Below, piece after piece: positions 1,787 to 4,296 of a DNA stretch of 4,296 nt. The notes below the pieces were generated by a model. The model saw nothing but the letters and a program-made list of their open reading frames with translations, had not been told where the DNA came from and made no database searches. Position 1 is the stretch's first letter. Each line of letters opens with the position of its first letter. A program made the translations under genes and the position numbers. The stretch is from a virus. Lineage: Duplodnaviria > Heunggongvirae > Uroviricota > Caudoviricetes. Where the stretch lies: IMG/VR virus record IMGVR_UViG_3300029229_000093. One strand, written 5' to 3'.

Positions 1787-2160
1787 ATGACTGAACGCAT
1801 AGAATTTGTTTTGCCTTNNNNNNNNNNNCGCCAACGGTGAACACTTACTGGCGACGTCGTGGCAGCACATATTTTGTATCAAAAGTCGGTGAGCGTTATC
1901 GCCGTGATGTGGCGCTAATTGTTCGCCAGCAGCGGCTGAAATTAAACCTGTCCGGAAGGCTGGCGATAAAGATTATTGCAGAGCCACCGGATAAGCGCCG
2001 TCGTGACCTGGACAATATCCTGAAGGCACCACTGGATGCGCTGACGCATGCCGGACTACTTATAGACGACGAGCAGTTTGATGAAATCAATATTGTGCGC
2101 GGTCAGCTCGTTCCTGGTGGGCGGCTGGGGATAAAAATCACAGAACTGGAGTGCGCATGA
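1787..2160 (+). CDS. rusA: RusA-family Holliday-junction resolvase, interrupted by an N-run
   Basis: ATG at 1787 abuts the upstream stop (TAAATG) and encodes MTERIEFVLP before the N-run. After the gap the frame reads ...PTVNTYWRRRG...DKRRRDLDNILKAPLDALTHAGLLIDDEQ..., matching the RusA RRRDLDN catalytic region. Stop TGA 2158-2160. The two halves are out of frame across 11 Ns, so the true gap length is probably not 11. Confidence 0.7.
1818..1828. other. Run of 11 ambiguous bases (assembly gap or masked bases)
   Basis: Literal n characters in the sequence, inside the rusA reading frame. Confidence 0.99.
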
Positions 2161-2846
2161 ATAACCAGTATTTACAGTTTGTGCGTGAGCAGCTCATTAT
2201 CGCCACCGCTGATTTGAGTGGGGCAACAAAAGGTCAGCTTGAAGCCTGGCAGGAGAATGCCATGTTCGATACAGGGCGTTACAGGCGTAAAAAAATCCGG
2301 TACCGCGATGAAGTGACCGGAAAAATGATAACGCGGGATAATCCACCAATCCCGGGAAAACAATCGCTGGCGAAGGGGACGTCAATTCCTCTGGTCAGTC
2401 AGGTTGCTTTTTCTACATCATCATGGCGGCGGGCTGTTTTGTCTCTTGAAGAACATCATAAAGCCTGGTTGTTGTGGTGTTACGGCGAGAGTATTTGTTG
2501 GGAATATCAGATCGCGATAACACAGTGGGCGTGGAATGAATTTAATACTCAATCCGGTACCAGAAAAATTGCAGGGAAAACGCAGGAACGCCTGAAAAAA
2601 TTAATCTGGCTGGCTGCACAGGATGTCAGGAGATGGGTTATAGGACATGATATCTACCAGCAACAGGAGCTTGCCCGTCTGTGTGGGATTAAGCCTGACA
2701 ACTGGAGCCACAATTATGTGAGCTACTGGCGTGAAATACTCGACATTTTTATGAACCTCGATACCGAATCTCTGATTTGCACTGTGAAAAGGAGATCTCA
2801 ACAAAAAGCGGCATTTTTGCAGCGAGATATTGCAAAAGTCAATTAG
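2157..2846 (+). CDS. Putative late-gene antitermination protein Q (lambdoid Q family, 229 aa)
   Basis: ATG at 2157 overlaps the rusA stop (ATGA, 2157-2160), with SD GGAG (2147-2150). Stop TAG 2844-2846. Position directly after rusA and directly before a promoter plus short-leader terminator is the classic lambdoid Q-pR'-tR' arrangement. The ORF track also offers an upstream GTG at 2151. Family assignment is by synteny and size, not a verified alignment. Confidence 0.6.
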   Translation: MNNQYLQFVREQLIIATADLSGATKGQLEAWQENAMFDTGRYRRKKIRYRDEVTGKMITRDNPPIPGKQSLAKGTSIPLVSQVAFSTSSWRRAVLSLEEHHKAWLLWCYGESICWEYQIAITQWAWNEFNTQSGTRKIAGKTQERLKKLIWLAAQDVRRWVIGHDIYQQQELARLCGIKPDNWSHNYVSYWREILDIFMNLDTESLICTVKRRSQQKAAFLQRDIAKVN

Positions 2847-2858
2847 ATAGCATATATT
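2830..2858 (+). promoter_or_regulatory. pR'-like late promoter (sigma70 -35/-10)
   Basis: TTGCAA (2830-2835), 17-bp spacer, TATATT (2853-2858). Overlaps the 3' end of the Q ORF. Predicted start near 2865. Confidence 0.45.
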
Positions 2859-2878: not shown

Positions 2879-2893
2879 GCTGTAAAGTGTATA

Positions 2894-2920
2894 AACCCGC
2901 TCAAATGTGCGGGTTTTTTG
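2894..2920 (+). terminator. Rho-independent terminator (tR'-like) ending a short late leader RNA
   Basis: Stem AACCCGC (2894-2900) pairs with GCGGGTT (2909-2915) around an 8-nt loop TCAAATGT, followed by a T6 run (2914-2919). Confidence 0.75.
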
Positions 2921-2949
2921 CTTAACTCTGTGGACCTTTTTATCTGTAG

Positions 2950-2975
2950 TTGTAATATATGGATATTGTTACAAT
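2950..2975 (+). promoter_or_regulatory. Inverted repeat TTGTAA/TTACAA overlapping a candidate extended -10 promoter (TGtTACAAT) just upstream of the kinase gene
   Basis: TTGTAA (2950-2955) and TTACAA (2969-2974) are reverse complements separated by 13 bp. TG (2967-2968) plus TACAAT (2970-2975) forms an extended -10, about 7 bp before the kinase SD. Confidence 0.3.
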
Positions 2976-2992
2976 TTAGGTCGGTGAGCTTA

Positions 2993-3757
2993 ATGGAAGA
3001 ACAGCACGGTAATTACTTTATAAAACGAATTCAGTTGATTGGAAGAGGGGCATTTGGCTTTGTTGAACACGTTAAGGTTTACAACCTCAATAAAGGTGAA
3101 TGCGGGGATTATGCTAGAAAGGTTTTAGCACCCGAAAAACCAGAGCTTTTGGCGCAAATAGAGCAGTTTAGAAGGCGTTTTAAAAGGGAGGTTGTGTATC
3201 AATCACATTGCGTACATAGCAATATTGTTCCTATTTATTTGTGCGATTTGTTTGTTGAGAATCCATGGTTCATTATGGATAAAGCAGAATGTGATCTTGA
3301 GCACGAAATAACGAACAACCTTCTTACAACAGATCAAAAAATTTCAATAGTGAAAATGGTATTAGATGGTGTAGCTTACATCCATGCCAAAGGCTATTTA
3401 CACAGAGATATAAAACCCTTTAATGTTTTGCGATTTAGCGACGGAACATACAAGGTGTCTGATTTTGGTCTGGTAAAAGATACGAATCCCGAAGGGGATA
3501 CCACTAAATTGACCGAGATCGGTACCCGTATGGGAAGTACAAGATATATGGCTCCCGAGATTTTATATAATGCAGAGTATTCAGTTAAGACTGATGTTTA
3601 TGCTGTGGGACGGTTAATTGAAGACTTAAATTTAGATGATAAAAAAATAAAGCCTATCATAGCTAAGTGCACAAGGATGGATAAAGATGATAGATATCAG
3701 ACAATAGATGATGTGGCGTTTGATTTTGCGCATTCTTTTTTAAGGAGTGAGTCATGA
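2993..3757 (+). CDS. Eukaryotic-like (Hanks-type) Ser/Thr protein kinase, catalytic domain only (254 aa)
   Basis: Start ATG at 2993 with SD GGTGAG (2983-2988). Read directly: Gly-rich loop IGRGAFGFV (3038-3064), VAIK-type lysine in YARKV (K at 3119-3121), catalytic loop HRDIKPFN (3401-), DFG (3461-3469), APE (3551-3559), subdomain IX Asp in KTDVYAVG. Stop TGA 3755-3757. The longer ORF-track start at 2918 is rejected because it overlaps the terminator. Confidence 0.85.
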   Translation: MEEQHGNYFIKRIQLIGRGAFGFVEHVKVYNLNKGECGDYARKVLAPEKPELLAQIEQFRRRFKREVVYQSHCVHSNIVPIYLCDLFVENPWFIMDKAECDLEHEITNNLLTTDQKISIVKMVLDGVAYIHAKGYLHRDIKPFNVLRFSDGTYKVSDFGLVKDTNPEGDTTKLTEIGTRMGSTRYMAPEILYNAEYSVKTDVYAVGRLIEDLNLDDKKIKPIIAKCTRMDKDDRYQTIDDVAFDFAHSFLRSES

Positions 3758-4296
3758 TTCAGCTGATAGCGACTTCATCATTCTCGTATCCAAAAGAACC
3801 AGGTAGGGTCAACGAAGATTCATTGCTTCCTCCAAAAATTGTAGGAGACGGCGTCTTATTTGCCGTAGCTGATGGTGTAGGTTCATACTCTGGTGCCAGT
3901 TATGCTTCATCCATGGCAATCGCTGAACTTTCAGCATTGACAAGTTTATCTTTTGATGCAGTTCCGAATGTATTTGCTGAAGTTAAGCGAAAAGTTATGT
4001 CGTTAGCTGAAGTTAATGATGAGTTCGATAAAGCTGCTACTACACTTACCTTTTGTTATGTTTGTGATAGCGGAATTATTATTGGTCATATTGGTGATTG
4101 TCGCTTGTATTGCATTGGAGAAAAGAAAGCATATCAATTGACGAAGGACGATACCAGACATCAGATGTTAATTGATCAGAATATTTTTAAACCCAGAGAT
4201 TTGAAGAATAAACCGGGAAAAAATATCTTAACGACTGCCATAGCCTCAAATGTTGATATGGAATACGACTGTGATTTTATCCCGTGGAAAGATTTG
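3754..4296 (+). CDS. PP2C-family (PPM) Ser/Thr protein phosphatase, 5' portion (181 codons, continues past window end)
   Basis: ATG at 3754 overlaps the kinase stop (ATGA), with SD AAGGAG (3742-3747). PP2C motifs read directly: RVNED (motif 1), FAVADGVGS (DGxGG-like, D40/G41 at 3871-3876), TTLT, IGHIGDCRLY (GDSR-like, 4093-4098), LTKDDTRH (LTxDH-like), NILTTAIAS. No stop before 4296. Confidence 0.85.
   Translation, partial: MIQLIATSSFSYPKEPGRVNEDSLLPPKIVGDGVLFAVADGVGSYSGASYASSMAIAELSALTSLSFDAVPNVFAEVKRKVMSLAEVNDEFDKAATTLTFCYVCDSGIIIGHIGDCRLYCIGEKKAYQLTKDDTRHQMLIDQNIFKPRDLKNKPGKNILTTAIASNVDMEYDCDFIPWKDL

Follow-up and report, generated by a model that had tools for sequence, protein, structure and literature searches.

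The described system closest to the locus reported here is KKP, in which the phosphatase PfpC and the two kinases PfkA and PfkB form a toxin-antitoxin module that serves to defend against phages and to control lysogeny (Guo et al., Nat Commun 2024, PMC11341870). KKP is borne by Pf6, P2, P4 and Mu-like prophages, and prophages of the Pf, P2, P4 and Mu-like types account for most of the more than 1200 clusters in which it occurs (PMC11341870). Defence against T4 follows from inhibition of the KKP phosphatase by the T4 protein Gp59, the same system controls induction of the Pf prophage through phosphorylation of MvaU, and one KKP kinase by itself has neither activity nor toxicity; the cold-shock domain (CSD) and the FHA domain of the kinases are required (PMC11341870). 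Here we analyse a 4296-nt stretch of DNA from a Caudoviricetes record (IMG/VR IMGVR_UViG_3300029229_000093; ‘the window’ below means this whole stretch), which spans the transition from the nin to the late region of a lambdoid prophage and carries a gene for a Hanks-type protein kinase followed by one for a PP2C-type phosphatase. The window is 100% identical to Escherichia coli MS 196-1, where the prophage adjoins ompW and reads, beginning with int and xis and continuing further on, DUF968, RusA, Q, kinase, phosphatase, a truncated DNA methyltransferase, tRNA-Ile/Arg/Arg, SASA esterase, holin, lysozyme and terminase. Extra cargo of this kind, inserted between conserved phage genes, is known as a ‘moron’, and we find that the kinase-phosphatase pair is an AT-rich, self-contained and horizontally mobile two-gene moron cassette distributed across Gammaproteobacteria.

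The first gene of the cassette (2993-3757, plus strand) encodes a stand-alone Hanks-type Ser/Thr protein kinase of 254 aa that consists of the catalytic domain alone, as seen from Pfam, a family alignment and an AlphaFold model. It scores 116.7 bits against the Pfam model Pkinase (PF00069; cut-off 31.7, E = 1.5e-33). Among 24 aligned relatives from many gammaproteobacterial genera the residues G17/G19/G22, K43 and E66, from the G-loop to alphaC, are invariant, and so are the catalytic loop H137-R138-D139-x-K141-x-x-N144, the D157-F158-G159 motif, E189 of the APE motif, D201 and R234, the Arg of subdomain XI. A preliminary description of this DNA, made from the sequence alone, had reported a complete and presumably active kinase core with K43 and D139 as key residues; the profile score and the alignment bear out the core and confirm the numbering, and with all catalytic residues intact the kinase is predicted to be active. 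The catalytic loop reads HRDIKPFN and is of the Ser/Thr type, a Lys in this loop marking Ser/Thr rather than Tyr specificity. We place the start codon at the ATG at 2993 rather than at the TTG at 2918 given in the mechanical list of open reading frames (ORFs), because a GGTGAG Shine-Dalgarno sequence lies at 2984-2989, the RefSeq start is the same and the N-termini of the family align there.

The kinase model has a mean predicted local distance difference test score (pLDDT) of 88.3 and a predicted template modelling score (pTM) of 0.85, with low confidence in the activation loop (162-180). In a Foldseek comparison its bilobal fold matches the kinase domains of BTK, Src and PknB with template modelling scores (TM) of 0.70-0.75. 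The top matches in the PDB are the tyrosine kinases BTK, Src and FGFR, ranked alongside PknB, despite the Ser/Thr-type loop. The short stretch between E189 and R234 suggests a reduced alphaG region. Neither Pfam nor a scan for hydrophobic segments gave any sensor, membrane or accessory domain in the kinase, PASTA included. A protein database search returned 305 clusters of relatives at E <= 0.001, drawn from Enterobacterales, Pseudomonas, Vibrio, Aeromonas, Haemophilus, Xanthomonas and metagenomes. The best 120 of these clusters measure 217-284 aa, most of them about 250, and hold kinase Pfam domains only, save two with one extra kinase-related entry.

The second gene encodes a PP2C (PPM) Ser/Thr phosphatase, identified by Pfam, alignments and an AlphaFold model. 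Residues 1-181 of its 247 lie in the window (3754-4296, plus strand), the gene extending 201 nt past the end, and the full-length protein was taken from the identical genome. Both the full protein (53.6 bits, E = 2.8e-14) and the fragment in the window (46.7 bits, E = 3.6e-12) exceed the cut-off of 24 for PP2C_2 (PF13672), and the full protein also passes that of PP2C (PF00481; 22.5 bits, cut-off 20.3). The earlier claim of a PP2C phosphatase with its metal-binding motifs therefore holds for the family assignment and for the N-terminal motifs, N20/D22, D40-G41-x-G43 and G114-D115-x-R117; the gene is incomplete, however, and the last two metal motifs, S194-D195-G196 and D233-D234, fall outside the window and are present in the full-length protein. 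D22, D40-G41, D195-G196 and D233-D234 are invariant in alignments of 11 and of 28 members, and with all metal-binding aspartates kept the phosphatase is predicted to be active. Its model (pLDDT 92.1) shows the PP2C beta-sandwich, with a TM of about 0.78 to Staphylococcus aureus Stp1, Mycobacterium tuberculosis PstP and tPphA; PstP and Stp1 are the closest solved structures. Profile searches and structure prediction, both proposed as checks in the preliminary description, thus agree on the two folds, with the Pkinase and PP2C-family models above their cut-offs and each protein, modelled singly, taking up its expected fold. The phosphatase family mirrors that of the kinase in the database search, with members of about 245-255 aa. 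Our phosphatase covers positions 273-520 of the 565-position profile phrog_5650, some phage members of which may thus be extended at the N-terminus by about 270 residues, perhaps a fused kinase; no kinase-phosphatase fusion was found among the 120 best phosphatase database matches.

The two genes are adjacent and overlapping, as had been noted, and share an ATGA in which the stop codon of the kinase meets the start codon of the phosphatase (3754-3757, plus strand, read from the sequence). This overlap, which suggests translational coupling of the two products, recurs in eight of the 11 loci whose junction was read. The phosphatase comes directly after the kinase in all 16 loci that were read throughout, and a kinase relative stands directly upstream in 78 of 80 IMG/VR viral contigs that hold a phosphatase relative, these 80 having been retrieved with phosphatase-specific motifs. 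Moreover, the pairwise identities of kinases and phosphatases co-vary over 15 loci (r = 0.85, Mantel p ~2e-4). The pairing is thus obligate. The family is widespread, with over 300 clusters of the kinase and 124 viral contigs found, and it is annotated just generically. Kinase motifs are a poor guide to it: a contig scan with the generic motifs HRDxKPxN and SDFGL returned 80 loci, 79 of them unrelated kinases of other phyla, and the sole family member was a locus of Pseudomonas koreensis (L004). A DNA-level search of the phage collection with the window gave no match, and the protein-level search found phiES15 and Flotzy.

The position of the cassette is defined by Q, a conserved phage gene. 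The late antiterminator Q (2157-2846, plus strand; L001 19308-19997) has 229 aa from the RefSeq ATG, is annotated in RefSeq as ‘bacteriophage antitermination protein Q’ and matches Phage_antiter_Q (PF06323) at E = 3.2e-84; its mechanical ORF begins earlier, at the GTG at 2151. A spacer of 146 nt separates Q from the kinase. With this Q and the prophage of MS 196-1, the earlier view of the pair as cargo directly downstream of Q in a lambdoid prophage is upheld. The slot between Q and the lysis genes is the one that holds stx in phage 933W. The same description had taken such pairs to be foreign to the late regions of enterobacterial phages, which does not hold, as the pair is recurrent there in several genera and behind three Q families. 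A search for the pair downstream of Q in other prophages, which had also been proposed, recovered it in E. coli, Cronobacter phage phiES15, Raoultella, Yersinia, Providencia and Aeromonas. In this first slot, from Q to holin, the antiterminators preceding the cassette belong to three unrelated families, namely PF06323 in E. coli, PF06530 in Raoultella and PF03589 in Yersinia, Providencia and Aeromonas, and the Q slot is likewise occupied in phiES15.

A second slot, between the lysis genes and the terminase, is used in Escherichia phage Flotzy, Enterobacter hormaechei and Serratia, and a third, beside the integrase, in Haemophilus and several viral contigs. Among the viral contigs the commonest slots, Q-holin and lysis-terminase, are those inside the late operon. 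Other arrangements are found at the margins of phages or outside them. For instance, a PM2-like prophage of Vibrio has the cassette at its edge, and in Pseudomonas syringae the cassette closes a P2-like tail cluster, next to a Panacea-domain gene. In Pseudomonas putida it sits in an islet without phage genes (L090 12357-13880), where the pair adjoins a 507-aa PNP_UDP_1 protein and transposases, and in a Xanthomonas islet of the same kind (L096 9682-11646) it adjoins a 654-aa NACHT protein and a SymE toxin; these PNP_UDP_1 and NACHT/SymE neighbours may be independent defence genes. Base composition sets the cassette apart everywhere: its GC content (0.34-0.43) is below that of the flanks in all 12 loci, with values such as 0.38 against 0.47-0.51, and it is lower than the flanks also in Xanthomonas (0.64) and P. 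putida (0.58). The interval between antiterminator and holin in Aeromonas caviae (L103 5454-13919) is a cargo hotspot, where umuDC-like genes, Com, an N6/N4 methyltransferase, an SRA-HNH nuclease and AbiEii/AbiEi accompany the kinase-phosphatase pair. The slot in which stx is carried thus emerges as a general cargo and defence hotspot of lambdoid phages. The prophage of E. coli 55989 (L185) has a gene for an SMEK-domain protein in its early region (13602-14501) and genes for sce7726-family and ‘beta family’ proteins in its lysis-terminase interval (27363-28992), all three being candidate conflict genes.

Within E. coli the cassette is present in 50 of 5426 complete genomes (about 0.9%) and falls into two allele groups. 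Group A comprises about 29 genomes including 55989, BEN2908 and VR50, with an identity to the window of 99.8% or more, and group B, about 95% identical, comprises about 20 including the enterotoxigenic E. coli (ETEC) E24377A; divergent alleles of the Flotzy and Enterobacter types were not found in complete E. coli genomes at the DNA level. The groups differ by 2.9% in the kinase and 4.7% in the phosphatase, while their flanks differ by 14.9% in the Q gene and 16% in the 150 nt after the phosphatase. A cassette divergence of 3-5% beside about 15% in Q indicates that the cassette has moved between backbones. Both genes are under purifying selection: between the groups the kinase shows 19 synonymous and 3 non-synonymous differences, for a ratio of non-synonymous to synonymous rates (dN/dS) of 0.037, and the phosphatase 23 and 12, for a ratio of 0.131. 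The cassette of E24377A sits in a prophage remnant without head and tail genes, and the cassette-bearing prophage of 55989 looks intact. The sole decayed copy among the 50 carriers is that of SY033 (L101 995-5879), in which Q, kinase and phosphatase are each split by the insertion sequences IS3 or IS1. In group A the methyltransferase gene downstream is cut to its 3' 288 nt (L001 21798-22085, compared with L100 14214-15263 and L098 2752-3801) and the small ORF preceding it is lost, while both are intact in group B; since the two losses are confined to group A, a deletion accompanied or followed the insertion.

The insertion itself can be read by comparing the occupied sites of loci L001 and L100 with the empty site in a collinear prophage of E. 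coli JBEHAAB-19-0176 (L098), which lacks the cassette. In the empty site Q is followed by a conserved promoter-like block and a terminator (CTGCCGTCAGGCGG-T8), and these by a small ORF, the methyltransferase and the tRNAs. The block from 2830 through ...TTGC(C/T)G at 2882 is kept in cassette-less prophages according to alignments of occupied and empty sites. It includes a candidate late promoter at 2830-2858 (plus strand), overlapping the 3' end of Q, with TTGCAA and TATATT spaced by 17 nt and nine of 12 consensus matches in the scan; its position and the annotation of 933W make it probably pR'. The left junction of the cassette is at 2883, roughly 18 nt beyond the predicted late transcription start, as homology to the empty site stops after 2882. 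On the right the homology begins again at a native tR'-like terminator (GGCTGC..GCGGCC-T5), which now lies 3' of the phosphatase and corresponds to the tR' of the empty site. Most loci have a hairpin and T-run after the phosphatase, and in E. coli this is the displaced native tR'.

Just inside the left junction the cassette bears an intrinsic terminator of its own, found by a terminator scan, in which AAACCCGC-loop-GCGGGTTT is followed by a T-run (2893-2923, hairpin 2893-2916, plus strand). The stem has eight pairs, five of them G-C, and the one site found compares with 0.2 expected by chance. This terminator replaces native tR' as the first terminator after pR'. It is kept in E. coli group B and, with part of the leader, in locus L127, whose cassette is 83% identical and lies behind a different late-promoter region; both elements move along with the cassette. 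Placed between pR' and tR' with its own upstream terminator, the cassette should be insulated from unmodified pR' transcription in the lysogen. From this anatomy and lambdoid biology, late transcripts would stop at the upstream terminator when Q is absent and read through kinase and phosphatase when it is present.

The leader (69 nt, 2924-2992, plus strand) contains the Shine-Dalgarno sequence mentioned above and weak promoter-like hexamers, TGGACC (2931-2936) and TAATAT (2953-2958) spaced by 16 nt or, alternatively, TACAAT (2970-2975). Over a 76-nt stretch to the kinase ATG, made up of the last 3 T of the terminator T-run, the leader and 4 nt of extraction offset, groups A and B show two differences, against a rate of 8.5% at third codon positions, which is a marginal hint of constraint in the leader. 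In group A the terminator, the kinase and the phosphatase lie between the two perfect copies of an 11-nt direct repeat, TGTATAAACCC (window 2888-2898 and L001 21650-21660, 2 nt past the phosphatase stop). We do not read this repeat as a target-site duplication, because it is perfect in group A only, matching at nine of 11 positions in group B and absent in L127, and because the same 1.9 kb contains further chance repeats of 10-11 nt; it may be a scar of recombination or itself due to chance.

A function for the cassette can be proposed by analogy with KKP, from which the logic of toxin, antidote and phage-borne trigger is borrowed. We see about an even chance that the pair is a one-kinase counterpart of KKP, a minimal module that acts through phosphorylation as a toxin-antitoxin and in abortive infection. 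The kinase would act as the toxic effector which, with its activation loop autophosphorylated at the candidate sites T174 and T183, would phosphorylate many host and/or phage proteins, and the co-translated PP2C phosphatase would continuously strip these marks and keep the kinase off. A product of an infecting phage might inhibit or titrate the phosphatase, or the kinase-phosphatase balance might otherwise be upset; the unchecked kinase would then halt cell growth or phage development, protecting the lysogen population and the resident prophage. At induction, the firing of Q would give high-level read-through of both genes together. We infer the toxicity, the antidote action, the trigger, the expression in lysogens and the anti-phage effect, and likewise a function in defence, exclusion or takeover as suggested previously, which context, mobility and selection strengthen. 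The pairing, the mobility, the conflict-system neighbours, the loci outside late operons and the purifying selection in a dead prophage together favour a benefit at the level of the cell. With the pair found behind three Q families, after the lysis genes, by the integrase and in phage-less islets, its location is independent of the lytic programme. In favour of the module also count the terminator that follows the phosphatase in most loci and the matches of the kinase domain to the defence-kinase profiles PD-T4-6, Stk2 and MAD6.

Several observations weigh against such a module. Defence needs expression in the lysogen, yet there is no convincing sigma-70 promoter from the upstream terminator to the kinase; a scan found none at threshold between 2917 and 2992, and an extended -10 element, TGTTACAAT (2967-2975), was rejected as a promoter because its TG is lost in allele group B and it is not kept in L127. 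The most frequent position of the pair, as the first genes after pR', argues for Q-dependent lytic expression. The analogy may also fail to carry over from KKP, since the kinase here has neither CSD nor FHA domain. Moreover, the matches of the kinase to the PADLOC profiles MAD6 of the methylation-associated defence system MADS (6e-40), PD-T4-6 of E. coli (1.4e-34) and Stk2 of Staphylococcus (1.3e-27) span the generic kinase domain alone (for example 11-201 of 327, 160-348 of 500 and 51-243 of 659), and the phosphatase has no significant match among PADLOC defence profiles (best 0.0027). Lastly, the selection seen between the two alleles may be older than the prophages' decay. As regards expression, the cassette is flanked by terminators and lies downstream of the Q-loading site, so that a dual mode is conceivable, which could combine low autonomous expression in lysogens with high Q-driven expression on induction.

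If the genes were instead expressed only under Q antitermination, as late genes, they could serve host takeover or counter-defence in the lytic phase. The kinase would then phosphorylate host proteins, as the T7 kinase does in disarming defences, and the phosphatase would strip the marks that defence kinases of the host or of rival prophages (of the Stk2, PD-T4-6 or KKP type) have set, or guard against leaky kinase expression. For this speaks the insertion near the start of the pR' transcript, some 18 nt in and upstream of native tR', with no strong promoter of its own, as do the commonest slots within the late operon and the presence of the cassette in the apparently intact 55989 prophage; a promiscuous kinase that a phage turns against defences also provides a precedent (PMC13645617). 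We nevertheless consider a purely lytic role unlikely, because the pair also occurs by integrases, at prophage ends and in phage-less islets with no Q to drive it, and because purifying selection persists in a remnant without structural genes. Late timing would also suit counter-defence poorly, and the terminators on either side of the cassette suggest autonomous transcription. In its most specific form, with a Q-gated phospho-switch of the phage's own that is silent in lysogeny behind its own terminator and supplies the first late genes at induction, the kinase reprogramming or disarming the host and the PP2C phosphatase stripping the marks of defence kinases, it seems to us rather improbable; if true, it would be the first pair of anti-defence phosphatase and anti-defence kinase encoded by a temperate phage.

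A toxin-antitoxin module has also to be weighed against regulation of lysogeny or induction, in which the balance of the two enzymes would set how far a phage regulator, or a nucleoid or silencing protein of the host, is phosphorylated, and so tune the induction of resident or co-resident prophages. KKP offers a parallel in its control of Pf induction via MvaU (PMC11341870), and the cassette-bearing E. coli are polylysogens with many related Q regions per genome. We regard this as quite doubtful, however, as no target is identifiable from the sequence, the occurrence in phages of very different types and in islets outside phages fits a phage-specific target poorly, and the kinase is without any DNA-binding, RNA-binding or FHA domain. 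Very doubtful in our view is lysogenic conversion unrelated to phages, whereby the stress tolerance, division, persistence or virulence of the host would be altered to the benefit of the lysogen. The slot is indeed used by stx and other conversion genes, and the carriers include the enteroaggregative E. coli 55989, the ETEC strain E24377A and the avian pathogenic E. coli BEN2908. Yet carriage by only 50 of the 5426 complete genomes shows no evident restriction to a single pathotype, the family reaches environmental Vibrio, Pseudomonas and Xanthomonas, and its neighbours are conflict-system genes and not virulence genes. If, on the other hand, the toxin-antitoxin mechanism is true, the cassette would be tractable for finding the trigger that upsets a kinase/phosphatase pair and the lethal targets of phosphorylation in bacteria, and would offer a system for studying how modules of its kind move between phage backbones.

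Upstream of Q the window holds four further ORFs. Two small ones, of 83 aa (133-384) and 92 aa (451-729), have no Pfam match; the former agrees in length and position with the gene annotated ‘protein Rem’ in the 55989 prophage (L185 17292-17543). They are followed by a DUF968/HNH protein (731-1786) and by RusA (1801-2160; L001 18952-19311). A run of 12 N at 1818-1829, in the 5' part of RusA, is a masking or assembly gap and not biology. No RNA families were found in the window by Rfam.

Among the other systems that combine or employ these folds, the kinase-phosphatase pairs PknB-PstP and Stk1-Stp1 of Actinobacteria and Firmicutes are likewise encoded by adjacent genes. They are, however, membrane-anchored, equipped with PASTA or other sensor domains and part of the core chromosome, whereas the cassette proteins are soluble, minimal and mobile. 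We rejected an origin as an orthologue pair of Stk1/Stp1 or PknB/PstP from Gram-positive bacteria, as the scores are far under the equivalog cut-offs (103.3 against 450 for PknB_PASTA_kin, NF033483; 96.5 against 230 for Stp1_PP2C, NF033484) and the family is native to mobile elements of Gammaproteobacteria. The MAD6, PD-T4-6 and Stk2 systems are without a dedicated PP2C partner, and the kinase scores 62.5 against a cut-off of 460 for the NCBIfam MAD6 model. Closer in setting is Stk of the Shiga-toxin phage 933W, a eukaryote-like kinase on an E. coli lambdoid prophage that reportedly aborts HK97 infection. Its identity to the cassette kinase is 24%, in the C-lobe only (215 columns, pairwise E = 6e-13), and it differs in having HFD in place of HRD, in its length of 348 aa and in lying on the other strand without a partner phosphatase. 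Its location between N and cI agrees with the different genomic region assigned to it before, and with such a distant C-lobe identity and another slot and strand we rejected membership of the cassette kinase in the 933W Stk family.

Searching the literature, we came upon no paper that deals with a Hanks-kinase/PP2C cassette of two genes in lambdoid phages and no mention of the RefSeq accessions of the two proteins, and such a pair is not described in the DefensePredictor paper or in the E. coli functional-selection paper. The two-gene family itself thus appears to be uncharacterised, in line with the preliminary description, which was unaware of KKP as a precedent for the general idea; as KKP already establishes the principle, the claim to novelty is lowered. 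Both KKP and the cassette are prophage-borne and mobile in Gram-negative bacteria, and both combine a PP2C of the PF13672 type with one or more PF00069 kinases in one operon. They are set apart by architecture. KKP has three genes in the order phosphatase-kinase-kinase, whereas the cassette has two in the order kinase-phosphatase and, unlike KKP, occupies lambdoid late-operon slots. The KKP kinases carry a CSD (PfkA) or an FHA domain (PfkB), and PfpC has a region beyond its phosphatase domain, while the cassette kinase is a catalytic domain alone and the cassette phosphatase a catalytic domain of 247 aa. If the proposed function is true, these two bare domains, encoded in about 1.6 kb and with no sensor or adaptor, would make up the simplest phosphorylation-based toxin-antitoxin immunity module yet.

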